A stretch of 64,000 bases of DNA, taken from Candidatus Daviesbacteria bacterium (GTDB lineage: Bacteria > Patescibacteriota > Microgenomatia > Daviesbacterales > UBA10151). Where the stretch lies: positions 14,607-78,606 of the forward strand of contig JACPKL010000001.1 of the NCBI GenBank assembly GCA_016187035.1, in the 5' to 3' direction. Both the position numbers and the translations under genes were made by a program. Shown here piece after piece: positions 1,676 through 63,487 of this stretch. The notes below the pieces were generated by a model. That model ran no database searches. It was not told the DNA's origin and saw nothing but the letters and a program-made list of their open reading frames with translations. Each line of letters starts with the position of its first letter. Position 1 is the first letter of the stretch.

Positions 1676-1681
1676 ATTAGT

Positions 1682-3076: not shown

Positions 3077-3085
3077 AATTCTATT

Positions 3086-3122
3086 GTCATCGCGAGCGAT
3101 TAGCGTGGCGATCTTCTAGTGC
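3086..3122. repeat. Palindromic element family A, half copy
   Basis: GTCATCGCGAG-CGATTAGC-GTGGCGATCTTC. The left terminus plus core half is retained and the right half is absent. Confidence 0.65.
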
Positions 3123-4515: not shown

Positions 4516-4519
4516 GAAT

Positions 4520-4640
4520 AATTTTTAATTTTAAGTTTTAAATTTTAATTGAATTTTAAATGTTTTAATGTTTTAAAATTTAATCATTTAGTCATTAAGA
4601 TTTGATTTTAAATTTAAAATTTGTACTTTAAAATTAATAC
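4520..4640. repeat. AT-rich intergenic array of degenerate heptamers (NTTTTAA-like)
   Basis: aatttta attttaa gttttaa attttaa ttgaatt ttaaatg ttttaat gttttaa ... between the PRTase start and the EndoQ stop. Confidence 0.55.
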
Positions 4641-4641
4641 T

Positions 4642-6021: not shown

Positions 6022-6041
6022 TTAGCCGAATTTTACCACAA

Positions 6042-7829: not shown

Positions 7830-7872
7830 ATCTGGATTGTAATTGATTATACTGCTGTTGTAAAATTCATTT

Positions 7873-8178
7873 ATGGCCGAATCTTCAGAAGGGAAATCCC
7901 CAATTATTCCTCCTATGCCAGAGATTTTAGATATTGAAAAGTTAAGTATCTGGATGAAGGATCATACAATAAGAGCTCCAAAAGGATATGCAGATATGAA
8001 ACGCCAAGATGGTACCCCCTTTAGTTTAGATGAGCAAATTGATGCTCATATAAAACAAACAGTAGACATTATTAACTTCAAGAGACAAAGAAATGATCCA
8101 AGAGAAACTTATCAAGAAATAGAACAAGGTATACTACGTTTTACTCAACCTGATGATCCTACCTCAAAAGGTAAGTAG
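7873..8178 (+). CDS. Hypothetical protein (101 aa)
   Basis: ORF only, no recognisable motif. Its 3' end converges on and overlaps the fic gene by 20 nt. Confidence 0.35.
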   Translation: MAESSEGKSPIIPPMPEILDIEKLSIWMKDHTIRAPKGYADMKRQDGTPFSLDEQIDAHIKQTVDIINFKRQRNDPRETYQEIEQGILRFTQPDDPTSKGK

Positions 8179-9235
8179 CTTTTTTGGTGCCGCCGATTTT
8201 TTTTATCAAGCCTTTTTTCCTTAAAAATTGTAACTCTCTTAAAACTGTATCATCTGAAAAATCAGGGAAGATCTTCCTGAAGTCTTTATTCTGCATGCTC
8301 TTATGACGATGGAGATATTCCATTATTATCATCTGCCTTTCATTTAATATGACCTGCTCCCCTAGTTTATCTTTAATCCTGGCATCAACAGAAATCCTTT
8401 GCACTTTTTCTTTAACCCTGTTTAACTCAATAGCAACACCTTCTGTAAAATATTCCAGCCAGGGAGTTAAATCCCTTTCATGAGTATCCAAAACCAACTG
8501 GTTAGATACTGCCTGCAAAGTTAAATAATACTTCATCGGATTTTCATCAAAATACTCCTCAAATGAGAAAAACTTTTTTATATCATATCCATCTAAAAAC
8601 ATTACTAAAGTAGCCACAGCCCTGGCTATTCTGCCATTCCCATCAACAAACGGATGAACTCTGGCTATTTCATAATGGATAATACCTGCTTTTAAGATGG
8701 GGTGGACTTGTTTCGCTTCATCAGAGTTGATCCAATTAACTAAATCTTCTATTAAATAAGGCACTTCCACTGCCGGAGGCGGTGTATAGGAAATTTGTCC
8801 TGTCTGGGAATTTTTAATAACCACTTGTCTGATTCTAAATTTCCCTGAAGACTGCTCTGGTAATATTTTCTCTGTAGTAAGCTTATGTATTTCTAAGATT
8901 GTTTCCAGGGTGAAGTTATATATACCAATTGAGCCTATTTGTACCTGAATAGACTCAACAAATCTTAAAACATTTCTATAATTAATGACTTCCTGAACAT
9001 CCCTGTCTCTGGCAACCACCTCAGTGCCTGCTAAAACATCCTGGACCTCTTCTTCAGATAAGGCATTGCCCTCAAGATGAGTGCCATGATGGATCGTTCT
9101 TTCAATAGCCTCTTTTCTGAATTTAGCTTCCCAGGCAGGCACCAAAGGAGCATGAATTATGACCTCTTTTGCAGCTTCTACAATACCTATGTCTTTTAAA
9201 ATCTTGTTGGTGATAGAATATTTGGGAACAAACAT
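8159..9235 (-). CDS. Fic/DOC-family protein (putative AMPylase) with C-terminal wHTH
   Basis: Fic motif HPFVDGNGRIARA, N-terminal Fic_N-like THLEGNALSEEEV, and a C-terminal winged-helix-like segment. Confidence 0.85.
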   Translation of the reverse strand: MFVPKYSITNKILKDIGIVEAAKEVIIHAPLVPAWEAKFRKEAIERTIHHGTHLEGNALSEEEVQDVLAGTEVVARDRDVQEVINYRNVLRFVESIQVQIGSIGIYNFTLETILEIHKLTTEKILPEQSSGKFRIRQVVIKNSQTGQISYTPPPAVEVPYLIEDLVNWINSDEAKQVHPILKAGIIHYEIARVHPFVDGNGRIARAVATLVMFLDGYDIKKFFSFEEYFDENPMKYYLTLQAVSNQLVLDTHERDLTPWLEYFTEGVAIELNRVKEKVQRISVDARIKDKLGEQVILNERQMIIMEYLHRHKSMQNKDFRKIFPDFSDDTVLRELQFLRKKGLIKKIGGTKKATYLLR

Positions 9236-9282
9236 ACCATTTCATTATCTCTCATTTCCCGCAAAAAAGCTATCTATATGCG

Positions 9283-9303
9283 TACCAATTTATTGTACGA
9301 TCG
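9283..9303. repeat. 21-bp direct repeat copy 1 (TACCAATTTATTGTACGATCG), upstream of fic
   Basis: Identical 21-mer at 9818-9838. Lies 3 nt after the PaaX-like stop and ~47 nt upstream of the fic ATG. Carries a TACAAT -10-like hexamer on the minus strand. Confidence 0.8.
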
Positions 9304-9305
9304 CA

Positions 9306-9818
9306 TCACAAAATGGTATTAATGGTATTAGCAGTTAAACGATTGACTTCCATTACCACCACCCACTTCTCTATTCCCAAATCTTTAATATATAATTCCA
9401 ATTTATCAAAAACGTTTCTTTTGCTCACCCAAACACTTTTTTGTAAATGCTTAAAACCCCATTTTTTAAGATTTCTTCTAAATAAGTTTCTGATAATTCT
9501 TTTTTGTTCTGGAATATCAAATATTACTATCCTCCACTTTCCATCCCAATCTTTCTCTTCATAATTATCACTGATTAATTCCTTTCCAGCTTGAGTCAGT
9601 TTTATTATTACATCATCCTTGACTTTTGTCTGTTCAATCAACCCCCCTTCCCTTAGTCTTCTTAACGCTTGGGATAAAGAGGATTTCCTAAGCTCAGGGA
9701 TTCCGTATCTGTAACGGTAATGATGATAGGTAAAATCTTCTAAACGAACATAACCATCCACTGTTTTTTCCAATACCAGAAGAATCTTATTTGTCAAACT
9801 CTTTTTATAAACCCTCAT
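9306..9818 (-). CDS. Small PaaX-like regulator (N-terminal wHTH plus Cas2-like/PaaX middle domain)
   Basis: WDGKWRIVIFDIPEQKRIIRNLFRRNLKKWGFKHLQKSVWVS matches the PaaX/Cas2-fold pattern. N-terminal wHTH (LSQALRRLREGGLIE). Paralog at 25795-26310. Confidence 0.6.
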   Translation of the reverse strand: MRVYKKSLTNKILLVLEKTVDGYVRLEDFTYHHYRYRYGIPELRKSSLSQALRRLREGGLIEQTKVKDDVIIKLTQAGKELISDNYEEKDWDGKWRIVIFDIPEQKRIIRNLFRRNLKKWGFKHLQKSVWVSKRNVFDKLELYIKDLGIEKWVVVMEVNRLTANTINTIL

Positions 9819-13100: not shown

Positions 13101-14194
13101 AGTAAATCCAAAAATTCATCAAATAGAAAACTAGCATCAAATGGGCCTGGACTTGCCTCAGGATGGAATTGAACAGCCAAGAATGGTTTTGTTTTATGCC
13201 TGATTCCTTCATTTGTACCGTCATTTAAATTAACAAACCATTCCTGCCAATCATTAGATAAAGATTTCATATCCACAGCAAAACCATGATTTTGAGAAGT
13301 GATAATGGCTTTTTTATTCTGCATATCTTGCACTGGCTGGTTTTGACCTCTGTGACCGAACTTCAATTTATAAGTATTGCCCCCTGCTGCTAAAGCCAGA
13401 ATTTGGCTGCCTAAACAAATACCAAATATTGGTATGTCTGTTTTCAGTAATTGTCTAGTTGTTTGGATGGTGGCTTTGGCTTGTTTTGGATCTCCTGGTC
13501 CTGGAGACACTGAGACTCCGTCAAAGTCCAATTTAGAATTTAAAGGATTAAAATCCCAAGGGACTTTGGTTATTTTTACGCCTCTTCTAACCAAACTTCT
13601 GATAATGTTCATCTTTACACCACAATCAACTAAGACTATATTTTTCTTACCACTGCCAAAAACTTCTACCTGATCTGTACTAACCTGTGGTAACACATTT
13701 CCTGCATTAGGATCATAATTTTGAATTTTGAATTTTGCTCTGCCGAAGGCAGTTTCGCTATGCGAAACATTTTGAATTTCTATCCTTCCCAGCATGACTC
13801 CATGCTCTCGCAGTTTCGTGGTTAATTGCCTGGTATCTATTCCCTGCAAAGCAGGTATTCCCTCTTCTTTAAGCCAAACATCTAGGTTCTTTTGACTTTC
13901 AAAGTGTGATGGATGATCAATATAATTTTGGACAATTAACCCTTTTACTTGAATTTTTTTTGATTCCCAAAACTCTGGATCTGGTACTCCATAATTTCCT
14001 ACCAGAGGATAGGTTAAAACCAGTATCTGTCCAAAATATGAAGGATCTGTCAAAGACTCAGGATAGCCTACCATACCAGTATTAAAAACCACCTCTCCTG
14101 AGGTACTCGAGAGTCCACTGGACTCTCTCCCCTCTGCCCCAAAAGATTGTCCTAAAAAAACTGTCCCATCGGACAGAATTAATTTTCCCTGCAT
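13097..14194 (-). CDS. carA: Carbamoyl-phosphate synthase small (glutaminase) subunit
   Basis: GEVVFNTGMVGYPESLTDPSY, with GATase triad context GICLGSQIL and VQFHPE. Start set at the ATG at 14194 (MQGKLILSDG). The track's longer ORF (to 14302) would overlap pyrB by 92 nt. Holds two in-frame repeat insertions. Confidence 0.9.
   Translation of the reverse strand: MQGKLILSDGTVFLGQSFGAEGRESSGLSSTSGEVVFNTGMVGYPESLTDPSYFGQILVLTYPLVGNYGVPDPEFWESKKIQVKGLIVQNYIDHPSHFESQKNLDVWLKEEGIPALQGIDTRQLTTKLREHGVMLGRIEIQNVSHSETAFGRAKFKIQNYDPNAGNVLPQVSTDQVEVFGSGKKNIVLVDCGVKMNIIRSLVRRGVKITKVPWDFNPLNSKLDFDGVSVSPGPGDPKQAKATIQTTRQLLKTDIPIFGICLGSQILALAAGGNTYKLKFGHRGQNQPVQDMQNKKAIITSQNHGFAVDMKSLSNDWQEWFVNLNDGTNEGIRHKTKPFLAVQFHPEASPGPFDASFLFDEFLDLL
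13718..13790. repeat. Composite insert in carA: heptamer tract (AATTTTG x3) plus two short hairpins plus a heptamer-like end
   Basis: AATTTTGAATTTTGAATTTTG-CTCTGCCGAAGGCAG-TTTCGCTATGCGAAA-CATTTTGAATTTC. Encodes IQNVSHSETAFGRAKFKIQNY in the inter-domain linker. Confidence 0.75.
14106..14133. repeat. Palindromic element family B core, in-frame in carA
   Basis: CTCGAGAGTCCACTGGACTCTCTCCCCT, a 28-mer identical to 40550-40577. Encodes GRESSGLSS. Confidence 0.85.
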
Positions 14195-23312: not shown

Positions 23313-24163
23313 AAGTATGTTCCCCTACCCCCTAAGGAGATCTTCTTGATTTGAGTCCCACACATTTTACATTTCTGTCTATTTCTGCCGTAACAATAAG
23401 CATAATCTAAATAATAACCTTTCTGCCCTTCGCTGTCTACAAAATTGGCTCTGGTAGAACCCCCAAACTTAATACCATCTTTTAAGGACTTGACTATACC
23501 ATAGTACAGCTTCTTAAATTGTTCGTCAGAAAGCTGAGAAACTAATGTTGCCGGATTAATCCCTGTATCAAAGCAGGCCTCATTAGCATAAATATTGCCT
23601 ATTCCTGAAACAACAGATTGATCCATAATAGCTGCTTTCACAGACTGAGATTTATGATTTAAGAGATTAGATTTAAGAATCTGCCAAGTGAAACTCTTTT
23701 CCAAAGGCTCTGGACCCAACTTTTCAAACAAACGATTTACGATTAACGATTTACGATTAACGATTTTTATCCAGCCGAATTTTCTTTGATCGTTAAAGTA
23801 AAGGTGTGATCCATCGCTAAAACTAAAAATAACCCTAGTATGCTTATTGGGCATATCCCCTGTCATATCTTCTGTTGGATGTCCTCCAATAAATTTGCTG
23901 TTACCATTAAAAACTAATTGTCCGCTCATCTTTAGGTGAAATAAAAGAGTCAAATTACCAGTTATATCTATGCCTAAAATCTTAGCTCTTCTCCATACTT
24001 TGAGTACTTTTCTACCCTGTAGATCCTGAGTGTAGTCGAAGGGTTGTCCTTTTTCATTTTGGAAAGATTTTGGGGAATTTATCTGGATTTTAGTTAATTT
24101 CAATCCTACAATTCTTTTCTCTAATCCAATTTTTATAATTTCTACTTCAGGTAATTCTGGCAT
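23291..24163 (-). CDS. mutM: Formamidopyrimidine-DNA glycosylase
   Basis: MPELPEVE N-terminus, LGPEPL, and a C-terminal zinc finger CKMCG..CPNCQ. Five heptamer units encode KIVNRKSLIVNR. Confidence 0.9.
   Translation of the reverse strand: MPELPEVEIIKIGLEKRIVGLKLTKIQINSPKSFQNEKGQPFDYTQDLQGRKVLKVWRRAKILGIDITGNLTLLFHLKMSGQLVFNGNSKFIGGHPTEDMTGDMPNKHTRVIFSFSDGSHLYFNDQRKFGWIKIVNRKSLIVNRLFEKLGPEPLEKSFTWQILKSNLLNHKSQSVKAAIMDQSVVSGIGNIYANEACFDTGINPATLVSQLSDEQFKKLYYGIVKSLKDGIKFGGSTRANFVDSEGQKGYYLDYAYCYGRNRQKCKMCGTQIKKISLGGRGTYFCPNCQR
23733..23767. repeat. Heptamer tract CGATTTA/CGATTAA x5 (in fpg)
   Basis: CGATTTACGATTAACGATTTACGATTAACGATTTT encodes KIVNRKSLIVNR. Confidence 0.85.
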
Positions 24164-28231: not shown

Positions 28232-28317
28232 GTCATTGCGAGGGATGTACCATACGGTACGTCCCGTGGCAATCTTCCTACTTGAGGTGGAAGATTCCTC
28301 ACTACGTTCGCAGTGAC
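28232..28317. repeat. Palindromic element family A, intergenic copy (86 bp)
   Basis: GTCATTGCGAG-GGATGTACCATACGGTACGTCCC-GTGGCAATCTTCC-tacttgaggt-GGAAGATTCCTCAC-..TTCGCAGTGAC. The right terminus is degenerate. Lies between fba and glpX. Confidence 0.85.
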
Positions 28318-33034: not shown

Positions 33035-34192
33035 TTAATACTCAGTCAAGTCCTCTAAATTTTTCTCCACCAATTCTAAAATTTCTTTTTTAAATCTAAC
33101 TTTTCCAAACTTCTCAGCGTTTTTGCGGCAGTCTTCGGTTTTGATACGATGATTCGTATCATCAAAGCGTTTAAGGACTTCTATTAAACTGTCCACAGAA
33201 ATTTGTCCTGGACAACCATATAATAATCCTGTTTTTCCATCTATGACTGTTTCTAAAAAGCCCCCGCTAAGCGGGGCTATGACCGGAGTTCCACAAACCT
33301 GGGCTTCTATTGAAGTAATCCCAAAATCCTCATCTTCTGAGGCCACAATTAAAGCCTGAGCATTAGACAGTAACTCTACTCTATCCTGATCAGATACCCA
33401 ACCCAGGAAAGTAGTTGGTAGTTGGTAGTTGGTAGCAAGCTTTTTTAGATTTTTTAATTCAGGACCAGATCCTGCTACTTTGAGTGGTAAACCTAATCTA
33501 CCACAAGCTTCTACCACTACCTCTACTCCCTTTCCCCTGACTAATCTACTCAGCACTAAATAATAAAATTTTGAATTTTGATTTGTATTTTTGATTTTTG
33601 AATTTTGAATTTTGAATTCTGCAAGATCCACTGGTGGGTAAATTACCACACTATCCCTTCTGTAAAATTTCTTGATCCGCTCTTGAACATTCTTAGAATT
33701 AGCAATTAAAATATCCGGTCTTTGGGAGGTCTCAAAATCATAAATTCTTAGAATATGATTAGCTAACTCCCCTAAAATTCTAGTAATAAAGTTTTTTTTA
33801 TAATTAAAAGAAGTCACATAACCATATAAAAACCTGGGCGGGGTATGAATGTAGCTTAAATGGAGCGTCTCGGGTTTAGTAATAACGGCTTTGGCAAAAT
33901 ATATGGCAGATGAAGAAATGACCAAATCATATTCAGATAAATCAAAACTTTCAAACATTAAACAAGCAAATACTCTGCAAGGAGACAACAGCTTATTGGC
34001 AAAAGGAAATTTTTGAAACCAGGAAGGCCTGATATCCCAATCCTTGAAACGCTTGCCATTCTCCCCCATTGCCTCCAAATTTACATAAGCAGTGTAGACA
34101 GGAGCATTAGGAAAGATTTCATGAAGGGCTTCTAAAACTCTTTCTGCTCCACCATATTCTCTTAAATAATCATGAGCTAATGCAACCTTCAT
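33035..34192 (-). CDS. Glycosyltransferase family 4 (GT-B fold)
   Basis: MKVALAHDYLREYGGAERV N-terminus and EDFGITSIEAQVCGTPVIA (EX7E region). Two in-frame heptamer tracts. Confidence 0.8.
   Translation of the reverse strand: MKVALAHDYLREYGGAERVLEALHEIFPNAPVYTAYVNLEAMGENGKRFKDWDIRPSWFQKFPFANKLLSPCRVFACLMFESFDLSEYDLVISSSAIYFAKAVITKPETLHLSYIHTPPRFLYGYVTSFNYKKNFITRILGELANHILRIYDFETSQRPDILIANSKNVQERIKKFYRRDSVVIYPPVDLAEFKIQNSKIKNTNQNSKFYYLVLSRLVRGKGVEVVVEACGRLGLPLKVAGSGPELKNLKKLATNYQLPTTFLGWVSDQDRVELLSNAQALIVASEDEDFGITSIEAQVCGTPVIAPLSGGFLETVIDGKTGLLYGCPGQISVDSLIEVLKRFDDTNHRIKTEDCRKNAEKFGKVRFKKEILELVEKNLEDLTEY
33411..33436. repeat. Heptamer tract GTAGTTG x3.7 (in GT4)
   Basis: GTAGTTGGTAGTTGGTAGTTGGTAGC encodes ATNYQLPTT. 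Confidence 0.85.
33567..33621. repeat. Heptamer tract AATTTTG/ATTTTTG, ~8 units (in GT4)
   Basis: AATTTTGAATTTTGATTTGTATTTTTGATTTTTGAATTTTGAATTTTGAATTCTG encodes FKIQNSKIKNTNQNSKF. The unit is the same as in the carA tract. Confidence 0.85.
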
Positions 34193-37022: not shown

Positions 37023-39347
37023 TTAATTTTCCTCCGGCTTCATTTCTCCCCAAGTTTTGCCTGCTTTTAAATCAACTACCACTGGTACTGATAATTCTAG
37101 AGCATTTTCCATTTTTTCTTTGACCATTTTAGCAATCTGGCGGACTTGTGGTGAGCCTGCCGAACCATCACATTCAAACAAAAGCTCATCATGAACTTGA
37201 AGAATTAACTTACAGTTATCAGTTTTCGGTTTTCTGTTTTCAGATATTGGTTTGCCGGTTTTCTGTTTACCAGATTGACTGATAACTGATGAACTTTCAT
37301 CCGACGACTGACCACTGAGAACCGATAACTCCTTATCAATTTCCACCATAGCCTTTTTAATCATGTCAGCTGAAGATCCCTGAATAGGATGATTAATTGC
37401 TGCTCTTTCTCCTTGAGATCTGATCATTCTATTTGAGGCTTTTAGCTCCGGCATATATCTTTTTCTACCCCAGATAGTCTCTACATAACCATTTTCATAC
37501 CCAAAAGCTAAAGTTTGCTCCATCCATTCCCGTACTTTAGGAAACTGCTCAAAATATTCCACTATGTATTGACGGGCTACTTCATATTCCACTCCTAGTT
37601 GCCTGCTTAAAGCATGTGGACCCTGGCCATAAAGAGTAGCAAAATTCATGGTTTTCCCAACATTTCTTTGCTCATAAGAAACCTTTCCCACAGGTACTTT
37701 AAAGATCTTTGCAGCAGTGGCGCTGTGGATATCCAAGCCTGCTAAAAAAGCCTGTTTTAATCCTGGATCATCTGCCAGATGAGCCATAATCCGAAGTTCT
37801 ATCTGAGAATAATCAGCTCCAAATAATACTTTTCCCTTGGGAGCAATAAAGGCTTTTCTGACCTCTCCTCCAAGTGTACCCCTGATTGGGATATTTTGAA
37901 GGTTGGGGTCCTGGGAAGAAACACGTCCTGTGGCAGCTCCTTCCACATTAAAAGTAGAATGTATTCTGCCGTCTTCCCCAACTGATTTTGGTAAAGCGTC
38001 AATATAGGTGGAAACTAACTTGAAAAGTTGGCGGTATTCCAACAAAAGGGGTACAGCAGGGTGAGCTATAGATAATTCTTTCAAAGTCTCCTCATTTGTT
38101 GACCTGCCGGTTTTGGTTTTTTTAAAAACAGGCAATTTTAACTCGTCAAAAAGCACTACCTGCAGTTGTTTTGGGCTGTTCAGATTAAACTGATGACCTA
38201 TTTTAGAGTAAATTTCTTTTTCAATATTAGTTAATTTAGCTTTTAAATCGGTCCCAAGCTTATTTAAAAACTTAAGATTTATTAATATTCCTGACTTGGA
38301 CATTTTTTCCAAAACCGGCTGGACTTGGAGATCTAAATCAGTAGTGTCATTGCGAGGAAGTTTACCCTGAGCCGATTCGGCCTGAGGGCTCACGGCCTCG
38401 AAGGCTTGTCGAAGGGTGGCAATCTTCCCACTTGAGGTGGAAGATTCCCACGGCCCTTCGGGCCTCGGAATGACAGGAAAAGGTAATCTGTTTATCAAGC
38501 TCTTAAATTCCAATTCTTCGAATAATTCTCTTACCTTATTAGCATCGTAATCATGTACTCTACAAGCTGCTAAATCTAGCTTGACAGGGGCATTTGTATC
38601 TAGAGTAGCTAATTTTTTACTCATCACAGCTGATTCTGCTCCCTCGGCCAGTAACTTTTGCATTCTTTCGGGTAAGGTCTTCAAATTTTTAGGCAAGTAG
38701 ATTTTCTCAATAGAACCGAATTGGTGAATCAATTTAGTGGCTGTTACATCTCCTATACCAGCTACCCCTGGAATGTTATCTGAAGCATCTCCTGCCAAAG
38801 CTTTGTAATCTATCATCTGAGGAGGCATAAAACCATATTTAGCTACAAACTCCTCTACTCCATAAAGGCCCACATCCTGTAAAGTTTTTTTTGGCATTAA
38901 TACTTTAATATTTTCATCAATCAGCTGCATAATATCCCTGTCACCCGTGACTATTATAACTTCTAATTTTTGAGCTTTGAGCTTTGAGCTTTGAGTTGCC
39001 AAAGCGCCTATTAAATCATCTGCCTCATAACCTGACAGCCTAAACTCAGGAATATTAAAAGCTTTCACTACCTGATAAACCCTATCATACTGGGAAGATA
39101 AACCATCATCAGCCGGTCCCCTGGTAGCTTTATACTGAGTGTAAGCTTGATGCCTGAATGTTGGCCCTTTTTCATCCCAGGCAATGGCTAAAAAATCAGG
39201 TTTTAATTCATTTAAAGTCCGAAGAAGCATTGAGGAAAAACCATATACAGCATTAATTAACTCACCATAAGATGTGGAAAAAGGAGGAGTGGCGTGATAA
39301 GCCCGATGAAGTAAAGCATTCCCATCAACCAAAACCAAATGTTTCAT
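37023..39347 (-). CDS. polA: DNA polymerase I: 5'-nuclease plus polymerase domains, no 3'-5' exonuclease domain
   Basis: N-terminal 5'-3' exonuclease (VLVDGNALLHRAYHA, GDRDIMQL, GVAGIGDVTATKLI). Pol A motifs DYSQIELRI, RNVGKTMNFATLYG and QVHDELLFE. The two domains are joined by a translated 129-bp palindromic element. A second ~40-aa heptamer-derived insert precedes QVHDE. Confidence 0.9.
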   Translation of the reverse strand: MKHLVLVDGNALLHRAYHATPPFSTSYGELINAVYGFSSMLLRTLNELKPDFLAIAWDEKGPTFRHQAYTQYKATRGPADDGLSSQYDRVYQVVKAFNIPEFRLSGYEADDLIGALATQSSKLKAQKLEVIIVTGDRDIMQLIDENIKVLMPKKTLQDVGLYGVEEFVAKYGFMPPQMIDYKALAGDASDNIPGVAGIGDVTATKLIHQFGSIEKIYLPKNLKTLPERMQKLLAEGAESAVMSKKLATLDTNAPVKLDLAACRVHDYDANKVRELFEELEFKSLINRLPFPVIPRPEGPWESSTSSGKIATLRQAFEAVSPQAESAQGKLPRNDTTDLDLQVQPVLEKMSKSGILINLKFLNKLGTDLKAKLTNIEKEIYSKIGHQFNLNSPKQLQVVLFDELKLPVFKKTKTGRSTNEETLKELSIAHPAVPLLLEYRQLFKLVSTYIDALPKSVGEDGRIHSTFNVEGAATGRVSSQDPNLQNIPIRGTLGGEVRKAFIAPKGKVLFGADYSQIELRIMAHLADDPGLKQAFLAGLDIHSATAAKIFKVPVGKVSYEQRNVGKTMNFATLYGQGPHALSRQLGVEYEVARQYIVEYFEQFPKVREWMEQTLAFGYENGYVETIWGRKRYMPELKASNRMIRSQGERAAINHPIQGSSADMIKKAMVEIDKELSVLSGQSSDESSSVISQSGKQKTGKPISENRKPKTDNCKLILQVHDELLFECDGSAGSPQVRQIAKMVKEKMENALELSVPVVVDLKAGKTWGEMKPEEN
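37212..37330. repeat. Degenerate heptamer array with inverted ends (CAGTTATCAG / CTGATAACTG) in polA
   Basis: CAGTTAT CAGTTTT CGGTTTT CTGTTTT CAGATAT TGGTTTG CCGGTTT TCTGTTT ACCAGAT TGACTGA TAACTGA ... encodes LSGQSSDESSSVISQSGKQKTGKPISENRKPKTDN just upstream of QVHDELLFE. Confidence 0.7.
38346..38474. repeat. Palindromic element family A, 129 bp, in-frame in polA
   Basis: GTCATTGCGAG..(extra GC-rich hairpins CCTGAGCCGATTCGGCCTGAGGGCTCACGGCCTCGAAGGC)..GTGGCAATCTTCCCACTTGAGGTGGAAGATTCCCAC-GGCCCTTCGGGCC-TCGGAATGAC. Translated as VIPRPEGPWESSTSSGKIATLRQAFEAVSPQAESAQGKLPRND. Confidence 0.9.
38971..38995. repeat. Heptamer tract TGAGCTT x3.5 (in polA)
   Basis: TGAGCTTTGAGCTTTGAGCTTTGAG encodes SKLKAQKLE. 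Confidence 0.85.
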
Positions 39348-40275: not shown

Positions 40276-41334
40276 CTAAAACAGCTGTTTGGCTAAGTTT
40301 AGATACTCCGGGTAGCCGTTTTGAGCCATTAAATACCACCACTCTACTCCCCAAAGATAGGCTTCATTAAAAGCTGTTTTTCTAACAAAGTTAATATTAT
40401 CTTTAAAATCAGCCAGTGTAAAAAGTTTTGCCTGAAACTGATAAGAATCCTCCCTTTTATCTCTTCTGGCTAACCACGGTTCTGCCTGAAGCTCTGAAAT
40501 TATAATTTTTTTATTCTGCTGCCTTCCTGCCACCTCGAAGGTGGGCTTTCTCGAGAGTCCACTGGACTCTCTCCCCTTCGAGGTGTTACTGACCAGATAA
40601 GCTTTTAAACTATACATTCCAGGAGTAAAAGGATAACTGGTATACATATTCACCATAGAATTAAAAGATCTTCTGTAAATAGAAACACCTAATACATCAG
40701 CCAGCTTAAAAGAACTCACCCAGCTCCCCCATTCACCGCTATCTGTGATAATGACCGGCCGGCTGTCTAATCTTTTAACCAAACCAATCTCTTCTTTCAG
40801 AAATAAAGAATTAGGAGAATCACAGCCTTCTCCAAACCAAAAAGCAAAAGGCTCATTTTCTATCTGCCAGGCCCCGATAGCCTGATTACCCTGATATCTT
40901 TCCACTACTTTTTGAACAAACTGCATGGTTTTTTGTCGCCTTTTCGGTAAAGATACTTTTTTAGCCCAATCAGGATACTGGCATTCCGGCCAACGAGGCT
41001 GCCTGGCGCCCAAGACTAAAATTACATTCGCTCCTCTTTTTTCCGCCTCAGATAACATAAAGTCAGTTTCAGAAAAATCATATTGATCCTGCTCTGGCTC
41101 TAGACTATTCCAATAACTGGGAAGCCTTAAATTTTTAACTTTTAACTCATCCAAGATCTGAAGATAGACTTTTTGCCAATCCAATTTTAGAAACCTGGCA
41201 TACCTGGGGGAAAAAGTTACCCCATATTTAACTTGATCAGAAGAATAATACTTTTCAAAGATAAAAGATATAAAAATTATAACAGTTATAATAGTTATAA
41301 ATATTATGATAGCGGCTTTAAGTATTTTACCCAT
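40276..41334 (-). CDS. Membrane-anchored TIM-barrel glycoside-hydrolase-like protein (clan GH-A type NEP motif)
   Basis: N-terminal TM helix. WQIENEPF (acid/base-like NEP) and ISELQAEPW (candidate nucleophile Glu). Contains the family-B palindromic element in-frame. Confidence 0.5.
   Translation of the reverse strand: MGKILKAAIIIFITIITVIIFISFIFEKYYSSDQVKYGVTFSPRYARFLKLDWQKVYLQILDELKVKNLRLPSYWNSLEPEQDQYDFSETDFMLSEAEKRGANVILVLGARQPRWPECQYPDWAKKVSLPKRRQKTMQFVQKVVERYQGNQAIGAWQIENEPFAFWFGEGCDSPNSLFLKEEIGLVKRLDSRPVIITDSGEWGSWVSSFKLADVLGVSIYRRSFNSMVNMYTSYPFTPGMYSLKAYLVSNTSKGRESSGLSRKPTFEVAGRQQNKKIIISELQAEPWLARRDKREDSYQFQAKLFTLADFKDNINFVRKTAFNEAYLWGVEWWYLMAQNGYPEYLNLAKQLF
40531..40585. repeat. Palindromic element family B, full 55-bp copy, in-frame in the GH-like gene
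   Basis: CACCTCGAAGG-tgggctttc-TCGAGAGTCCACTGGACTCTCT-cc-CCTTCGAGGTG. An 11-bp perfect outer inverted repeat surrounds the central palindrome. Encodes TSKGRESSGLSRKPTFEV. Confidence 0.85.
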
Positions 41335-48423: not shown

Positions 48424-49412
48424 AAATAATCAAGTTTCATCATCTTTTTAACTTCTGCTAAAGTTTTTTGGGCTTCTGCTCTTATCTTTTCTGTCCCTTT
48501 TCTTAGGATCTCATCTACCAAATCAGGTTTATTCTCATACTCAGCCCTTTTTTTCCTAATAGGTTCCAGAAAATTATTTAAAACTTTAGTAAGGTACTTT
48601 TTTACCTCAACATCGCCTACTTGGCCTTTTGTGTATTGTTCTTTATAACTTGTTACTTGTGCCTTGTCATCTTCTGTACCAAAGGCATCCAGATATATAA
48701 AAACAGGGTTGCCTCCAACAGTTCCGGGATCTGTGGGATGTATTCTTTTTGGATCTGTATACATACCCATGACCTTTTTTTCTACTTCTTCTTGGGTATC
48801 TGTTAGGAAAATAGCATTACCCAATGATTTGCCCATCTTAGCCTGCCCGTCAGTACCAGGCAGAGTTGGCACCTCTCCTATTAAAGGTTCTGGGATGGGA
48901 AAAACCTCCCCATATTGGTCATTAAACTTTTGGGCAATGTCTCTGGCAAACTCCACATGAGCCTTTTGATCCTTACCCACAGGCACCAAATTGGCTCTGG
49001 GAAGCAAAATATCAGCAGCCATTAAAACCGGGTAGTAAAAAAGTCCAACAGTATCTTCAGACCCCTGGTCCAGTTTTTCTTTTAAAGCAGGCTGCCTGGC
49101 AATTAAACTTCTGGGAGTAAGCAGGCTAAGAAAATATGCCAGCTCCAAAACCTCCGGCACTTTGGATTGAACAAAAAAAGTTACTCTCTCAGGCTCTAAT
49201 CCAACTGATAAATACCCAAGCATCAGCCCCCTGATATTTGATTCTAATTCCCGGGTTCTATTAAAATGAGTAGTCAAAGCATGAAGATCAACCAAAGGGA
49301 TAAACATTTCATATTCCTGTTGCAGCTTAACTCTATTTTTTAATGACCCCACATAATTACCTAAATGAAAACTATCATAAGTAGGCCTATCCCCTGTTAA
49401 AATCCTTTTCAT
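48420..49412 (-). CDS. trpS: Tryptophan--tRNA ligase
   Basis: Class I motifs GDRPTYDSFHLGNY (HIGH-like) and KMGKS (KMSKS). 330 aa. A 21-nt heptamer module encodes DKAQVTS. Confidence 0.9.
   Translation of the reverse strand: MKRILTGDRPTYDSFHLGNYVGSLKNRVKLQQEYEMFIPLVDLHALTTHFNRTRELESNIRGLMLGYLSVGLEPERVTFFVQSKVPEVLELAYFLSLLTPRSLIARQPALKEKLDQGSEDTVGLFYYPVLMAADILLPRANLVPVGKDQKAHVEFARDIAQKFNDQYGEVFPIPEPLIGEVPTLPGTDGQAKMGKSLGNAIFLTDTQEEVEKKVMGMYTDPKRIHPTDPGTVGGNPVFIYLDAFGTEDDKAQVTSYKEQYTKGQVGDVEVKKYLTKVLNNFLEPIRKKRAEYENKPDLVDEILRKGTEKIRAEAQKTLAEVKKMMKLDYF
48648..48668. repeat. Heptamer module ACTTGTT-ACTTGTG-CCTTGTC (in trpS)
   Basis: The 20-mer ACTTGTTACTTGTGCCTTGT is identical to 52002-52021. 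A variant lies at 52266-52286 in the SucD-like 3' end. Confidence 0.8.
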
Positions 49413-51200: not shown

Positions 51201-51950
51201 CTACCAAGGCAATTTTCTGGGTGAAGTCCCATCATATTCAATCTCTTCACTAGGTATTCTTCTGAATGGTTTTTCTCTGACCCATTCTTCAAATACATGG
51301 GCTATGAGTCCTACTACCCTACCGATTAAGAAAAATCCCTTGCCTAACCTGTAGTCAAAGCCCATATCAGAAATAACAGCTGCTATGGCTCCATCCACAT
51401 TAACAGGTATTTTTTTACCTTTCTTTTGCTCTAAAACCTGTTCTACTTTAACTGCCAACTCACAATATTCCCCAAAAAAACCTAATTTTTTAGCCTTTTC
51501 AAAAATCTGTTTAGCTCTGGGATCCTCCGTCTTATAAACTTTGTGTCCAAATCCAGCAATTCTGTCTCCTGCTGCTAATACTTTTTCCACCAATTTTTCA
51601 GCAGACAGGCCCATCTGCAGCAGTCTGGCACATTCTTCAATTGCTCCTCCATGATATTCCCCTATTCCTAATACTCCTGCTGCCACAGCAGCCTGCATGG
51701 GATTGCCGGCAGAGGCAGAATTCCTGGCATTAGTTGTGGATGGCGGACCCATGCCATTATCAATGGTGGAGATTAAAATAGCATCCAGCATAGCTTTCTC
51801 TTTTTCTGTAGGCAGCTCCCCTTTTAATTCCAGCCAGATAGCCGCTGTGAAGTTTACCTTATCCATCAACTCAGTCACTTTATAACCATGAATCAAAGTC
51901 TCCCCATCAACAATTCCAGCAATAGATGTTTTCCACTTTTTATCAGACAT
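51201..51950 (-). CDS. Short citrate-synthase-family protein (citryl-CoA lyase-like)
   Basis: GFGHKVYKTEDPRA citrate-synthase signature in a ~250-aa protein. ATG at 51950 (MSDKKWK) is preferred over the TTG at 51986. Confidence 0.65.
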   Translation of the reverse strand: MSDKKWKTSIAGIVDGETLIHGYKVTELMDKVNFTAAIWLELKGELPTEKEKAMLDAILISTIDNGMGPPSTTNARNSASAGNPMQAAVAAGVLGIGEYHGGAIEECARLLQMGLSAEKLVEKVLAAGDRIAGFGHKVYKTEDPRAKQIFEKAKKLGFFGEYCELAVKVEQVLEQKKGKKIPVNVDGAIAAVISDMGFDYRLGKGFFLIGRVVGLIAHVFEEWVREKPFRRIPSEEIEYDGTSPRKLPW

Positions 51951-51959
51951 AATAGTAAC

Positions 51960-52024
51960 TAGTAACAAGTACAGTAAAGGTAACAAGTTGAAATAAAAAT
52001 AACTTGTTACTTGTGCCTTGTTAC
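51960..52024. repeat. Long imperfect hairpin built from heptamer modules (ACTTGTT/ACTTGTG/CCTTGTT and complement)
   Basis: TAGTAACAAGTACAGTAAAGGTAACAAGT - tgaaataaaaata - ACTTGTTACTTGTGCCTTGTTACTA. Lies between the four-helix-bundle fragment stop and the ccl-like start. Confidence 0.7.
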
Positions 52025-52263
52025 TATTTCTGTGAAATGTATAACCTCCAAATTATATGTCCTGTTTCTGATCTTAGCAAGCAGACATCCTGAAATTCTG
52101 TTTCTTTTATTAATTTTCTCTGGTAAGAAAACTCAAGCAAATATTCCGTTTCTGCAAGCGAGCCTAAGGCTATAGATAAAAATCTATAAAATTCTTTCTT
52201 ACTGTTTCTAGCATGCCCTTCAACAATGTTTGTTGGAACTGATAAGCACGCTCTTTGTAGTTG
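52024..52263 (-). pseudogene. 5'-truncated four-helix-bundle protein gene (23S rRNA intervening-sequence protein family)
   Basis: Not in the ORF track (contains no Met). Own translation: QLQRACLSVPTNIVEGHARNSKKEFYRFLSIALGSLAETEYLLEFSYQRKLIKETEFQDVCLLRSETGHIIWRLYISQK then stop. Matches the family core RA..S...NI.EG..R.S.KEF..FL.IA.GS..E. It begins right after the SucD-like stop, and roughly 40 N-terminal codons are absent. Confidence 0.7.
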
Positions 52264-53169
52264 TTACTTGTCACTTGTGCCTTGTTGCTTTAGTAATTCT
52301 GGGATTTCATCTGGAGTTTTGGCAATAATAACTCCAGCTGCTTTTAAGGCTGTTATTTTTGATTTATAACTGCCCTTATCACCATAAACTATGGCTCCTG
52401 CATGACCAAGTTTTGTACCTTGGGGCAACTTTTCGGCAAATAACCCTGAGATAAAGGCTACCACTTTTTTGCTAAACTTACCACTTTTAATAAGCTGTGC
52501 AGCCTCTTCTTCATAAGTTCCCCCAATTTCTCCAAATAAAACTACTGCTTTAGTTTGCTCATCTTTTTCAAAGTCTACCAATAAATCAGCAAAGCTTGAC
52601 CCCACCAGTATATCTCCTCCAATACCCACAACAGTTGATTGCCCAATGCCATTTTTGGTTAGAATCCAGGATACCTCAGATGCCATTCCCCCGCTTTTAG
52701 AAATTATCCCCACATTTCCTTTAGAATAAACGCCTCTGGGATCATCCCCGCCAATTGAGCCCACTTTACCTATACCTGGAGAAATAATCCCAATAGATGA
52801 GGGGCCTACAATTCTCACTCCATTTTGTTTGGCTAAAGCTATGGCCTTGGCGCTATCTGCTATTGGAATATGTTCTGTTAAAACATTGATTAGAGGAATT
52901 TTGTTATTGATTGCCTCTTCTATTGCACCAAAGGCGGCAAAATTTGGCACAGCTATGAAAGAGGTATTAATCCCGGGGTGATTATCCAATGCTTCAGAAA
53001 CTGTATTATATACAGGTATTCCGGAAACCTCATATCCACCCTTACCAGGAGTTACTCCGGCTAAGACTTTAGTTCCATAATTCCTCATCTGTAAGGCTGC
53101 TTTAGAGCCTTCTTTACCAGTGATACCCTGGATTAAAACCTTAGTCTTTTCTGTTACTAAAACACTCAT
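52264..53169 (-). CDS. Succinyl-CoA synthetase alpha-subunit family protein (CoA-binding plus CoA-ligase domains)
   Basis: VLIQGITGKEGS, SKSGGMASEV and phosphohistidine loop LGHAGAIV. The C-terminal QQGTSDK is encoded by a heptamer module. Confidence 0.8.
   Translation of the reverse strand: MSVLVTEKTKVLIQGITGKEGSKAALQMRNYGTKVLAGVTPGKGGYEVSGIPVYNTVSEALDNHPGINTSFIAVPNFAAFGAIEEAINNKIPLINVLTEHIPIADSAKAIALAKQNGVRIVGPSSIGIISPGIGKVGSIGGDDPRGVYSKGNVGIISKSGGMASEVSWILTKNGIGQSTVVGIGGDILVGSSFADLLVDFEKDEQTKAVVLFGEIGGTYEEEAAQLIKSGKFSKKVVAFISGLFAEKLPQGTKLGHAGAIVYGDKGSYKSKITALKAAGVIIAKTPDEIPELLKQQGTSDK
52266..52286. repeat. Heptamer module ACTTGTC-ACTTGTG-CCTTGTT (3' end of the SucD-like gene)
   Basis: Third copy of the module. 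Together with 51960-52024 it brackets the truncated four-helix-bundle gene. Confidence 0.75.
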
Positions 53170-53202
53170 ATGAATTCTTTACTCCTTTTTTTATCTTCGT
53201 AG

Positions 53203-53252
53203 ATTTAAGATGTAAGAATTAAGAATTAAGATCTTAAATCGTAAATCATAAA
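53203..53252. repeat. Intergenic heptamer tract with central palindrome TTAAGATCTTAA
   Basis: ATTTAAG ATGTAAG AATTAAG AATTAAG ATCTTAA ATCGTAA ATCATAA ATC. Confidence 0.7.
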
Positions 53253-54485
53253 TCACTTAACTCCATATGCTAACTCCACCATGATTTTTGCAGTTGAAGT
53301 CATTGGAGTCTCCCTGCCAAATATATGAAAATCAAACCCTTCCTTACGGCCTACTCTTTTTAGCTCCTCAAAAGCTTCCTGATCCCTTGGCCCGCCTCTT
53401 CTTATCACAATTGGGTAAGCAGGCTTTGGTTTAATTTCCCTAAGCCCTTCTACAAAGCCCATTAAAGTTTCATAAATATCAGTAAAATTGGCTGTGCCTC
53501 CCACAAACCAACAACCCTTAAGTCCTGGTTTTCCTAGAACAATTTTAGTTAATTTTTTCAATTTTTCTCTGGGAGGGTTGCCTGAGTGTTCAGTATAATT
53601 AGCCGCCCTTCCTCCAAAAGTTACTAAAGCATCCATGTTAACTATAGACCCTCCACCTCCTGCAGCAATGACTGCAATGTCTCCATCCCGAAGGTCCCAA
53701 TAAACAGAGCCTGCAGTACCTCTGTGATCTCCTTCATCTATTTTTCTGGCTTCAATTTCAGCCTCAGTTGGGGGTCTGCCAAACAAATTTCTTTGGGGAA
53801 ATTTAATTTCCCTTCTAAAGTCTGCATCATCGTCCAAGATAACTTTGGCATCTAAAGCATAGACTCTCTTGTCATTGCGAGGTCCGCCCTGGCGGACCGT
53901 GGCAATCTTTCCATTTGAGATGGAAGATTCCTCGCTTATGCTCGGAATGACAGAAGTGGTAGAAACTACCAAAGGATTTATTTCTGCCAGTTCTAAGTCA
54001 TATTTTGTGAATACCTCCCAAAGCTCTGTAATAGTATCTGTAAATTGGACATAATGTTCAACGATCGTTGAAGGTAACGTCATATTTAGAGGATCAACAG
54101 GAAAACTCTCTGCGCCTTTTTCCTCTACTCCTGTCCCACCTTTGCCAAAAGTTAACACAGGTCCTCTTGTTGCTGTGGAGTATGAGAAAGACAGATAATA
54201 CTCCTTACCAACATCAACCATTTGTTCAACTAAAACCTTCTCCACCTTCTCATTGTTAATTGTCTTTGAAAGTAATTCTTCAATCTTAAATCTTAAATCT
54301 TCCATCTTCTCTACCACCAAAATCCCCCCAGCTTGTGCTCTTTTTCCAGACAAAACTTGAGCTTTCAAAACCAAAGGAAGTTTTAAGGTTACTTCCTGAT
54401 CTGCAGATTCTAAGAGTTGTGACTGGGGAACATTAATCCCACAACTTTTAAAAAGTTGTTTGCCTTCAAATTCGAAGAGTTGCAT
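53253..54485 (-). CDS. Succinyl-CoA synthetase beta-subunit / ATP-citrate-lyase beta-like ATP-grasp protein
   Basis: N-terminal ATP-grasp (MQLFEFEGKQLFKSCGI). C-terminal ligase-CoA-like IAAGGGGSIVNMDALVTFGGRAANYTEHSGNP. Carries an 81-bp family-A element in-frame between the halves. Confidence 0.75.
   Translation of the reverse strand: MQLFEFEGKQLFKSCGINVPQSQLLESADQEVTLKLPLVLKAQVLSGKRAQAGGILVVEKMEDLRFKIEELLSKTINNEKVEKVLVEQMVDVGKEYYLSFSYSTATRGPVLTFGKGGTGVEEKGAESFPVDPLNMTLPSTIVEHYVQFTDTITELWEVFTKYDLELAEINPLVVSTTSVIPSISEESSISNGKIATVRQGGPRNDKRVYALDAKVILDDDADFRREIKFPQRNLFGRPPTEAEIEARKIDEGDHRGTAGSVYWDLRDGDIAVIAAGGGGSIVNMDALVTFGGRAANYTEHSGNPPREKLKKLTKIVLGKPGLKGCWFVGGTANFTDIYETLMGFVEGLREIKPKPAYPIVIRRGGPRDQEAFEELKRVGRKEGFDFHIFGRETPMTSTAKIMVELAYGVK
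53871..53951. repeat. Palindromic element family A, 81 bp, in-frame in the SucC-like gene
   Basis: GTCATTGCGAG-GTCCGCCCTGGCGGAC-CGTGGCAATCTTTCCATTTGAGATGGAAGATTCCTC-GCTTATG-CTCGGAATGAC. Translated as SVIPSISEESSISNGKIATVRQGGPRNDK. Confidence 0.9.
54285..54301. repeat. Heptamer tract CTTAAAT x2.4 (in the SucC-like gene)
   Basis: See 4229-4259. Confidence 0.8.
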
Positions 54486-56559: not shown

Positions 56560-56634
56560 TGGTGGCAGCGACAGGGATCGAACCTGTGACCTAGCGGTTA
56601 TGAGTCGCTCGCTCCGCCACTGAGCTACGCTGCC
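56560..56634 (-). tRNA. tRNA with anticodon CAU; G1-C72 paired, so elongator Met (or Ile2 if lysidine-modified); CCA encoded
   Basis: Own fold of the reverse complement: GGCAGCG-TA-GCTC-AGTGGCG-GAGC-G-AGCGA-CTCATAA-CCGCT-AGGTC-ACAGG-TTCGATC-CCTGT-CGCTGCC-ACCA. Confidence 0.85.
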
Positions 56635-58122: not shown

Positions 58123-58194
58123 CGCGGGGAAGTGTAACGGCTGCACACAAGGCTCATAATCTTGAGGCAGTGGGTTCGACTCCCGCCCCCGCAA
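58123..58194 (+). tRNA. tRNA with anticodon CAU and a C1xA72 mismatch: probable initiator tRNA-fMet with atypical D-arm and anticodon stem
   Basis: CGCGGGG..GTGT-AACGGCTGC-ACAC..CAAGG-CTCATAA-TCTTG-AGGCA-GTGGG-TTCGACT-CCCGC-CCCCGCA-A. No encoded CCA. Lacks the three consecutive G-C pairs usual in initiator anticodon stems. About 1 nt short of canonical length. Confidence 0.65.
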
Positions 58195-58440
58195 CCTTTT
58201 TTAATCTTAAATTTCTTCATTCTGTTGGGGCATTAAACAAAATTAAAAAATGATAAAAAAAGTTGGTTATAATGTTGACCATAGGCAGTTTGATAAAGAT
58301 AGTTTCATGTTGCCCATTCTACTTTTTAGAAGTAAAGATAAATTGCCTTTTTGTGTAAGAAAATAGTAATAGATGAGTGTTTTATATTGAAATTAGAGAT
58401 AAGAATCTGTTAAAGTTTGTAAGAAGTTTACGAAAGTCTT

Positions 58441-61775: not shown

Positions 61776-61796
61776 GTTCTTCCAGTATTGACAAAG

Positions 61797-63414: not shown

Positions 63415-63415
63415 G

Positions 63416-63487
63416 TGGGCGGACCAGGATTTGAACCTGGAACCAAATCTGTATAAGAGATTTGCTCTACCGTTGAGCTATCCGCCC
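63416..63487 (-). tRNA. tRNA-Ile with anticodon UAU (reads AUA)
   Basis: Own fold of the reverse complement: GGGCGGA-TA-GCTC-AACGGTA-GAGC-A-AATCT-CTTATAC-AGATT-TGGTT-CCAGG-TTCAAAT-CCTGG-TCCGCCC-A. All stems are Watson-Crick paired. No encoded CCA. Confidence 0.85.

Follow-up and report, generated by a model that had tools for sequence, protein, structure and literature searches.

The 64,000-nucleotide stretch of Candidatus Daviesbacteria DNA analysed here (contig JACPKL010000001.1, positions 14,607 to 78,606; hereafter the window) has a GC content of 37% and comes from the Microgenomates, a part of the candidate phyla radiation (CPR). Its genes are tightly packed and lie mainly on the minus strand. 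Within many of these genes, and in some intergenic DNA, there are short tandem tracts of seven-nucleotide units, which an initial annotation of the sequence had singled out with a tract in a GT4 glycosyltransferase gene as its example. Tandem Repeats Finder (TRF) found period 7 at 17 places in the window. The TRF arrays cover all positions listed in that annotation except the one in trpS, a tract at the 3′ end of a SucD-like gene was added by a scan for self-match at a lag of 7 nt (lag-7 scan), and each of the listed tracts was recovered by one or the other procedure, trpS being weak. The trpS tract lies below the thresholds of both, yet it is an exact 21-nt copy of positions 52001-52021. The host genes, whose identities are supported by database names and by Pfam and PDB matches, encode a phosphoribosyltransferase, an ATP-dependent DNA ligase, CarA, Fpg, the GT4 glycosyltransferase, PolA, TrpRS, a SucD-like CoA-binding protein and a SucC-like acetate-CoA ligase family protein. 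At least eight distinct units are present within the window.

The period is specific. Exact self-match runs numbered nine at lag 7 and almost none at other lags between 4 and 12. As a control, codons were permuted inside every open reading frame (ORF) and tracts were counted at a lag-7 score of at least 12. Eleven strong tracts, nine of them coding, pass this threshold in the window, compared to a mean of 2.03 after shuffling. Since that mean reflects two intergenic tracts that were not shuffled, nine coding tracts were seen where about 0.03 are expected. Period 7 is far ahead of all other periods, and an excess over codon-preserving controls, on which the first description of the tracts had been made to depend, is thus present. 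The observation that every tract is in phase is correct but automatic, given that the ORFs are intact.

Several tract-bearing proteins were also found in independent Logan assemblies of five sequencing runs (SRR12113420, -22, -24, -83 and -84). Contigs L081-L088 from these assemblies match the window with 99.74-100% identity and no gaps. The tracts at 4240, 4519, 23732, 52261, 53201 and 60488 lie within these contigs, and unit numbers are unchanged in all of them. No unit-number variants were detected in protein clusters formed at 90% identity, which were either singletons or contained identical tracts. Reproduction of six tracts without a change in unit number in assemblies from five runs indicates that the tracts are neither artefacts nor phase-variable loci. 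Two of the short-read contigs stop within tracts, L083 at 51997 and L084 at 4556, which shows that the repeats disturb short-read assembly. As far as independent assemblies can show, the concern that the tracts could be assembly artefacts is removed. The supposed fragility of the host genes, in which gain or loss of one unit would kill the gene, found no reflection in the data, no change of unit number being seen among these near-identical strains.

The scan was extended to 80 loci surrounding GT4 orthologues (one genome per species, 1.37 Mb in total), of which L001-L022 are from Daviesbacteria and the remainder from Levybacteria, Curtissbacteria, Gottesmanbacteria and more distant groups. Pooled over this set, 180 tracts were found at lag 7, 28 at lag 8, 13 at lag 9, five at lag 6 and four at lag 5. 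Lag 7 leads in most loci of the four named groups, and likewise in the majority of the first 45 loci of the set. The density is 1.5-2.1 tracts per 10 kb in loci of Daviesbacteria and neighbouring Microgenomates, and many of the most distant loci of the 80-locus scan contained no lag-7 tracts. In part of the Microgenomates, the heptanucleotide tracts are a trait of the clade as a whole. Assignment by ORFs of at least 90 codons, used instead of gene calls, places 150 of the 180 lag-7 tracts inside ORFs, which together make up about 94% of the DNA, and leaves a small intergenic sample of 30 tracts. Per base, tracts are roughly threefold denser outside ORFs, a rough figure as ORF coverage overestimates coding DNA.

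Tract length peaks at 30-33 nt, or about 4.5 units (73 of the 150 tracts in ORFs), and many tracts are perfect over 4.5 units. Outside ORFs, 13 of 30 tracts measure 30-32 nt. An enrichment of tracts of 3n units in coding DNA relative to intergenic DNA, which had been put forward as a check, was not found: the two length distributions are essentially alike, with a mode near 31 nt, and with 30 intergenic tracts the comparison is non-discriminating. A small secondary cluster in ORFs, at 52-53 nt, lies 21 nt above the main peak. The lag-8 tracts likewise have a length mode of 31 nt, and it therefore seems that total length rather than unit number is conserved. Period-8 tracts were seen in the Levybacteria-like loci L044, L057, L033, L036 and L032 and at window positions 4555-4596; AAGATATT and TCAAAGAG are examples.

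On the coding strand the tracts contain 48% A (31% in the coding background) and 13% G. The commonest unit, AAAATTC, was found in 14 tracts, 27-fold above its share of coding 7-mers, and is followed by AAAACTC, AAATTCG and AAAGTTC. A run of at least three A residues is present in 57% of units versus 16% of the background; stretches of at least three G residues are absent from the common units. Because three successive units are read in all three frames, a unit must be stop-free in every frame, and only 55 of the 150 observed units are stop-free in the opposite orientation as well. The encoded heptads (KFKIQNS, KFKVQSS, KLKTQNS) are hydrophilic or amphipathic. The tracts are located in domain linkers and surface loops, as in GT4, CarA, Fpg and PolA. 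Intergenic tracts often occur as convergent pairs that form hairpins, and inverted pairs were also found in L057, L068 and L047. A scan of viral contigs with (AAATTCA)x4 produced 21 hits, mostly isolated long arrays. One contig labelled viral (L096, IMG/VR IMGVR_UViG_3300028549_002218; 59% GC) has, in a region of 12 kb (458-9697), 12 tracts of period 7 that measure 26-38 nt, with units AGAATCC, CCGCTGA and AAAATTC and some convergent pairs. The heptamer phenomenon with tracts of about 31 nt thus exists in an unrelated GC-rich genome.

Period-7 tracts and other features of the window. Peptides are those encoded by the tract; the fourth column gives the corresponding TRF period-7 arrays.
Feature	Position	Strand	TRF array	Repeat and peptide	Remarks
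GT4 glycosyltransferase gene	33035-34192	-			Product matches, at 100% identity, a glycosyltransferase from a Candidatus Daviesbacteria metagenome-assembled genome (MAG)
GT4, flagged tract	33567-33618	-	33567-33618	Imperfect (CAAAATT)n on the coding strand, AATTTTG on the plus strand; 7.6 copies, 82% matches
GT4, second tract	33411-33435	-	33411-33435	(CAACTAC)x3.6; TNYQLPTT	C-terminal domain, helix end and loop
Phosphoribosyltransferase tract	4228-4259	-	4228-4259	(AAGATTT)n; KDLRFKIGDL	Recovered in Logan assembly L084
AT-rich intergenic block	4519-4645		4519-4584; 4605-4635	Several period-7 and period-8 tracts	Lies 5′ of the phosphoribosyltransferase gene
ATP-dependent DNA ligase tract	6288-6319	-	6288-6319	Perfect (TCAAAGT)x4.6, IQVQSSKFKVQSK; QVQSSKFKVQS
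CarA tract	13717-13737	-	13717-13737	(CAAAATT)x3; KFKIQN	Residues ~189-196
Fpg/MutM tract	23732-23766	-	23732-23766	(AAATCGT)x5, period 14 perfect; IVNRKSLIVNR	Identical in L081 and L082
PolA, C-terminal tract	37213-37268	-	37222-37268	Imperfect (GAAAACN)n; SENRKPKTDNC	Directly before a conserved Cys
PolA, 5′-nuclease-domain tract	38969-38995	-	38969-38995	(GCTCAAA)x3.9; QSSKLKAQK
trpS tract	48647-48667	-		Three units, ACAAGGC ACAAGTA ACAAGTT; DKAQVTS	Weak
Convergent tract pair	51953-52025		52002-52025	ACAAGTN type	Start of truncated citrate-synthase ORF and neighbouring intergenic DNA
SucD-like gene tract	52261-52285	-		Third copy of the ACAAGGCACAAGTRACAAGT tract; QQGTSDK*	3′ end and stop codon; recovered in L083
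Intergenic inverted pair	53201-53255		53201-53255	(AGATTTA)n, then (TAAATCN)n	Between SucC-like and SucD-like genes; recovered in L083
SucC-like acetate-CoA ligase family protein tract	54273-54309	-	54273-54309	(AAGATTT/AAGATTG)n; EDLRFKIEEL
GAF sensor histidine kinase tract	60488-60504	-		2.4 units TCAAAAA	Minor; recovered in L085-L088
PolA gene	37023-39347				5′-nuclease domains, residues 4-269; family A polymerase domain, residues 360-768
Palindromic repeat in PolA	38345-38475				Residues ~290-335
Palindromic repeat in DNA ligase	7405-7475				Residues ~95-130
Palindromic repeat, intergenic	28265-28305
23-nt palindrome GAGAGTCCACTGGACTCTCTCCC	14109-14131; 40553-40575
Citrate-synthase ORF	51201-51986				Matches the C-terminal half only (Pfam profile positions 164-353 of 357)
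Integrase-family gene	~61788-62690				Pfam Phage_integrase
tRNAs (ARAGORN)	56560-56634; 58123-58196; 63415-63487

By translation, the flagged GT4 tract encodes EFKIQNSKIKNTNQNSKF (residues ~192-209) in the linker that joins the two halves of the enzyme. This linker is hypervariable, ranging from about 5 to 45 residues among 25 orthologues. An AlphaFold2 model of the protein, made with 25 sequences, has low confidence at residues 201-206; with a mean pLDDT (predicted local distance difference test score) of 58 and a poor N-terminal half it lends weak support to the linker placement. The 5′-nuclease tract of PolA stands in place of the AEQEGY loop of mycobacterial Pol I, and the Fpg tract occupies the hinge between the N-terminal and H2TH domains, before the conserved LGPEPL motif (PDB matches in both cases). 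The CarA tract lies between the Pfam CPSase small-chain (41-174) and GATase (223-399) domains. The convergent pair that includes the copy of the trpS tract is predicted to fold (51940-52032) into a hairpin with a dG of -24.6 kcal/mol (z -4.15), and the inverted pair between the SucC-like and SucD-like genes (53195-53262) into one with a dG of -13.4 kcal/mol (z -2.79). No significant fold was predicted for the AT-rich intergenic block (z -0.58).

PolA has about 90 residues between its two domain regions and hence no 3′-5′ exonuclease-like domain; this interdomain linker measures 53-114 residues in 15 Daviesbacteria orthologues. A comparison of tract density with linker length over these 15 Daviesbacteria loci, all of which have short linkers, gave a rho of 0.28 (p 0.32). 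A second kind of in-frame insert, unrelated to the heptamer tracts, is a small palindromic repeat (GTGGCAATCTTCC...GGAAGATTCCCAC...CCTCGGAATGACA) present in PolA, in the DNA ligase and at one intergenic site. In PolA it is translated as ...GKIATLRQ...LPRNDT.... The GTGGCAATCTTCC-type repeat resembles palindromic repeats like miniature inverted-repeat transposable elements (MITEs), of which CPR genomes have many. The 23-nt palindrome occurring twice may be a shared hairpin or terminator or belong to a small repeat family. Two of the tRNAs have a CAT anticodon, are called tRNA-Met and lie on opposite strands about 1.5 kb apart; one is a tRNA-Ile with the unusual anticodon TAT.

At orthologous sites both the unit and the length of the tracts vary. 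Period-7 tracts in the GT4 linker of orthologues are built on AGCCAAA, GGGGAAA, GAAAGCT, TCAGTCG and AAAAAAG, and those at the second GT4 site on AACCTGT, CAACTAT, AAACCAT and others. At the TrpRS site, the equivalent in L027 is a perfect AAATTCG tract. The 5′-nuclease loop of PolA exists as a short allele of seven residues (AKQAEKL) and as 14-residue near-perfect tracts in at least eight genomes of several genera, with at least six different units. The Fpg hinge has alleles of 7, 14 (38 of 49), 21 and 28 residues. In orthologues where no tract was called, lag-7 identity is 0.41 at the Fpg hinge, versus 0.23-0.32 at other lags, and 0.565 in the C-terminal loop of PolA, where the lengths are 4-7 or 10-13 residues. 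At clean sites the length steps are 7 aa, equal to 21 nt or three units. With different units at the GT4, PolA and Fpg sites and stepped allele lengths at the PolA 5′-nuclease loop and the Fpg hinge, these sites are recurrent hot spots with rapid unit turnover.

Elsewhere tracts replaced native sequence without changing its length. The ligase tract aligns without gaps to the non-repetitive IHARADKIKLDHK in 18 of 21 homologues, and no residual lag-7 signal was found in the homologues carrying IHARADKIKLDHK. Both the ligase tract and an independent tract in L050 are built on the conserved local codons AAAGTT (KV). Other gap-free overwrites were found in L050, L037 (where IRY is kept), L011 and L007. 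Such overwriting rules out simple insertion at these sites; it fits misaligned copying followed by realignment, or a 21-nt gain offset by a 21-nt loss. Transient-misalignment or template-switch mutagenesis is known from established work on polymerase errors. Ortholog alignments, which had been recommended for deciding between insertion and replacement of native loops, show 7-aa steps at clean sites and gap-free overwrites at others, such as the ligase.

The recurrence of identical units in unrelated genes, also remarked upon at the outset, was exact for three k-mers: ATCTTAAATCTTAAATCTT at 4241 and 54283, ACTTGTTACTTGTGCCTTGT at 48648 and 52002 and AATTTTGAATTTTG at 13717 and 33567. Between genomes, the same cyclic unit is found in 1.5% of tract pairs, which predicts 0.8-2 such pairs in the window. 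Given this rate and the small set of units in use, chance alone would be expected to produce the AATTTTG and TCTTAAA coincidences. Within genomes, same-unit pairs numbered 14 versus 5.5 expected (p = 0.0025), and 38 pairs shared 12-mers versus 17.7 +/- 4.3 expected, a value reached in none of 2000 permutations. Rare units are among those shared (GGGGAAA in L002, GAACCGT in L027). In the window there are three copies of the heterogeneous 20-mer ACTTGTTACTTGTGCCTTGT, the one at 52261 being a variant, and this sequence must have been copied between loci. Either some inter-tract copying or a genome-specific preference therefore exists, secondary to local origin. The region 51201-52285, in which two of these copies lie, resembles a rearrangement junction: upstream of the truncated citrate-synthase ORF there are the C-terminal two-thirds of a four-helix-bundle ORF of the 23S rRNA intervening sequence (IVS) type, with the start missing, and on either side of this fragment lies a direct copy of the ACAAGGCACAAGTRACAAGT heptamer tract.

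The reading that we favour, with moderate confidence, is that the tracts are heptanucleotide microsatellites, of the class of short tandemly repeated repetitive sequences (STRRs) and long simple sequence repeats (SSRs), that arise by misalignment in a 7-nt register and are filtered by selection. The misalignment mechanism itself is what we infer. During replication or repair, the nascent strand would re-pair with the template at an offset of 7 nt or, more rarely, 8 nt. Whole units could then be gained or lost, or the strand could realign, in which case templated substitution would make adjacent heptamers identical with the length unchanged. Within genes, a net change of 0 or 21 nt (three units, 7 aa) alone would preserve the frame. 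The surviving units would be those that are stop-free in three frames and encode hydrophilic peptides such as KFKIQNS, and only linkers and surface loops would tolerate them. As coding sequence makes up about 90% of these small genomes, most surviving tracts would be in housekeeping genes. Convergent pairs in intergenic DNA would form hairpins, and occasional copying between tracts may explain the units shared in one genome. The period specificity, clade spread, unit turnover, 21-nt steps, length-neutral seeds and stability of the tracts all support this reading, as do the unit bias, the position at domain linkers and the traits shared with the Xanthomonas and Nostoc heptamers. The period-14 perfection of the Fpg tract and the length cluster 21 nt above the main peak fit it too. 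It comes close to the suggestion of the initial annotation that the tracts are slippage-prone modules under strong purifying selection, which agrees with the data in the dominance of period 7, the stop-free hydrophilic units, the loop sites and the 7-aa steps.

Several observations weigh against the microsatellite reading. Stepwise slippage fails to explain how three units arise together in an essential gene. The ~31-nt mode is alike inside and outside ORFs and for lag-8 tracts; it can therefore not come from the frame filter and points to a ruler or constraint. The choice of units is far from the local supply of 7-mers, as the 27-fold excess of AAAATTC demonstrates, and AAAATTC tracts of about 31 nt occur in contigs of 57-59% GC too. 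Sharing of units and 12-mers within genomes is 2-2.6 times that expected, rare units included, and is easier to reconcile with copying or a template at the level of the genome than with seeds of purely local origin. When gap sizes among orthologues were pooled for all tracts, distant homologues included, no enrichment at multiples of 7 aa was found, the 7-aa quantisation being visible at individual clean hot spots only. The 80 loci surround one gene neighbourhood and many of their tracts are at orthologous sites, hence they are not fully independent. The frame filter does not account for a preference for 7 nt, as units of 6 or 9 nt would pass it at every step. On this point, the one published proposal that we found, in PMC4692102 citing Mrazek 2007, is that the footprint of the polymerase active site favours 7-nt slippage.

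Some of these points would be met by a dedicated system of templated synthesis or patch rewriting, in which each tract would be made in one event by copying of a ~24-nt patch in a 7- or 8-nt register. Candidates would be a nickase with a strand-displacing polymerase, a reverse transcriptase-like enzyme with a short template or a gap-filling polymerase of fixed processivity. Such a system would yield a ~31-nt mode and genome-specific units. It is favoured by the sameness of that mode in ORFs, intergenic DNA and lag-8 tracts, by the perfection of many tracts at 4.5 units and the several length-neutral overwrites, by the recurrence of rare units at unrelated loci of one genome and by ~31-nt tracts, AAAATTC included, in unrelated GC-rich contigs. 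We nevertheless consider it unlikely, since no candidate enzyme or template was identified, each genome has many units (the window at least eight) that often match local conserved codons, and the same sites also have alleles that differ by 7 aa in either direction, as gain and loss of units predict. There is a small but real chance that an unrecognised mutational activity rewrites ~24-nt patches in a register of 7 nt, at times 8 nt, and generates ~31-nt tracts of any unit, ~31 nt corresponding to three helical turns. This activity would belong to a particular replication or repair enzyme or to a small templated system. If so, the same activity would also underlie the cyanobacterial STRRs and the Xanthomonas heptamers, and in CPR bacteria it would continuously generate new protein loops in essential genes. 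Ribosomal frameshifting or transcriptional slippage tolerating out-of-frame intermediates was considered as well and rejected: the units do not correspond to canonical slippery sites, and none of the alleles seen was out of frame.

The initial annotation had also considered that the tracts are footprints or termini of a mobile or recombination system. We find it quite unlikely that they are such footprints, termini or insertion sites, or that they spread chiefly by ectopic gene conversion between tracts. A residue of this view stands, consisting of the 20-21-mer ACTTGTTACTTGTGCCTTGT at 48648 and 52002 with its variant at 52261, the two copies of it flanking the four-helix-bundle ORF fragment, and the sharing of 12-mers within genomes at about twice the expected level. 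As a general explanation it is not supported, in view of the different units carried by orthologous loops, the derivation of units from local codons, the chance level of two of the three k-mer coincidences and the shortness of the tracts (only ~31 nt). No element body, terminal inverted repeats or transposase was noticed beside the tracts, where no systematic search for transposases or integrases was made, and the sole integrase-family gene seen is not adjacent to a tract. Selection at the protein level for 7-residue modules, such as small hairpins or flexible linkers, with the nucleotide periodicity as a by-product, would account for the uniformly hydrophilic or amphipathic peptides, their location in linkers and the native residues sometimes kept. 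It is improbable in view of the perfection of the repeats at the nucleotide level, synonymous positions included, the same length mode and roughly threefold higher per-base density of intergenic tracts, and the freedom with which units change at a given site. Each single-unit change of a coding heptamer shifts the frame, and the AAGACTC repeat of Escherichia coli neuO provides a precedent for phase-variable contingency loci (PMC13001214, PMC8653822), but the hosts here are essential housekeeping genes, the arrays are short (3-7.6 units) and six tracts lack any unit-number difference in five-run assemblies at 99.7-100% identity, making this explanation highly improbable. Assembly or binning artefacts, to which the breaks of Logan contigs at 51997 and 4556 might point, can practically be dismissed, as the tracts are identical in independent assemblies, lie within intact ORFs and have counterparts in dozens of MAGs from unrelated studies.

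Over-representation of heptamers in bacteria has been known since 1990 and 2007, with no accepted mechanism. A survey by Mrazek et al. in 2007 reportedly dealt with heptanucleotide long SSRs. Our literature search, mostly of open journals, found no report of heptamer tracts in CPR bacteria or Microgenomates. The tracts described here are informative in several ways. Their location in essential genes lets selection reveal the rules, namely net changes of 0 or 21 nt and stop-free units; orthologous hot spots offer many countable independent events; and the length-neutral overwrites favour templated misalignment over simple insertion. The tracts rank among the main sources of variation in the loops and linkers of CPR proteins. 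Short-read assemblies break at them, and they can lead alignments and homology models astray.

The broad features of heptanucleotide long SSRs are all present: units of 7 nt arranged head to tail, an excess of period 7, dispersal and sharing by relatives. The analogy with the cyanobacterial STRRs, made in the initial annotation, fits broadly. Like STRRs (Mazel et al. 1990, as cited in PMC4692102), these are over-represented heptanucleotides with lineage-typical units at many loci. In the strict definition, STRRs are defined unit families of heterocystous cyanobacteria and mostly intergenic, whereas the present tracts belong to a CPR host, have many units per genome and lie mostly in frame within genes, a contrast drawn from the description of STRRs. 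The Xanthomonas GGGAATC and Nostoc PCC 7120 GGGGAYT heptamers are G-rich, interpreted as G-quadruplex formers and under-represented in coding DNA, according to PMC4692102. Similarities to them include dispersal of tandem 7-nt units over about a hundred or more sites per genome, a preference for about four units, convergent intergenic pairs, and variation of sequence and length between related genomes. The Daviesbacteria tracts differ in being A-rich, without G-tracts and hence without the quadruplex feature, and in being mostly (150 of 180) in ORFs. Quadruplex formation cannot explain the roughly four-unit length of A-rich repeats, and, since these keep the length preference of the Xanthomonas and Nostoc heptamers, the preference is unlikely to stem from it.

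Heptamer repeats are known from neuO of E. coli K1, where AAGACTC forms a coding variable number tandem repeat (VNTR) that is in frame only at multiples of three units, and from hmw1A/hmw2A of Haemophilus influenzae, with 7-bp repeats (PMC13001214, PMC8653822, PMC8262952). As in neuO, heptamer units lie in coding sequence, and three of them together specify a repeat of 7 residues; AAGACTC also resembles the AAAACTC seen here. The neuO and hmw repeats are long, hypervariable and phase-switching and reside in surface-related or phage genes. The Daviesbacteria tracts, in contrast, are short, stable among near-identical strains, free of unit-number polymorphism at the assembly level and hosted by housekeeping genes rather than by surface, modification or virulence genes. 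As in the tandem repeats of Borg elements, nucleotide-perfect repeats within ORFs add low-complexity peptide. Borg in-gene units are said to be divisible by three, longer and far more numerous, and to encode disordered protein regions. What distinguishes the present tracts from these known systems is the CPR host, the mostly in-frame location within essential genes, the A-rich units, the recurrent hot spots and the overwriting of native sequence without change of length.

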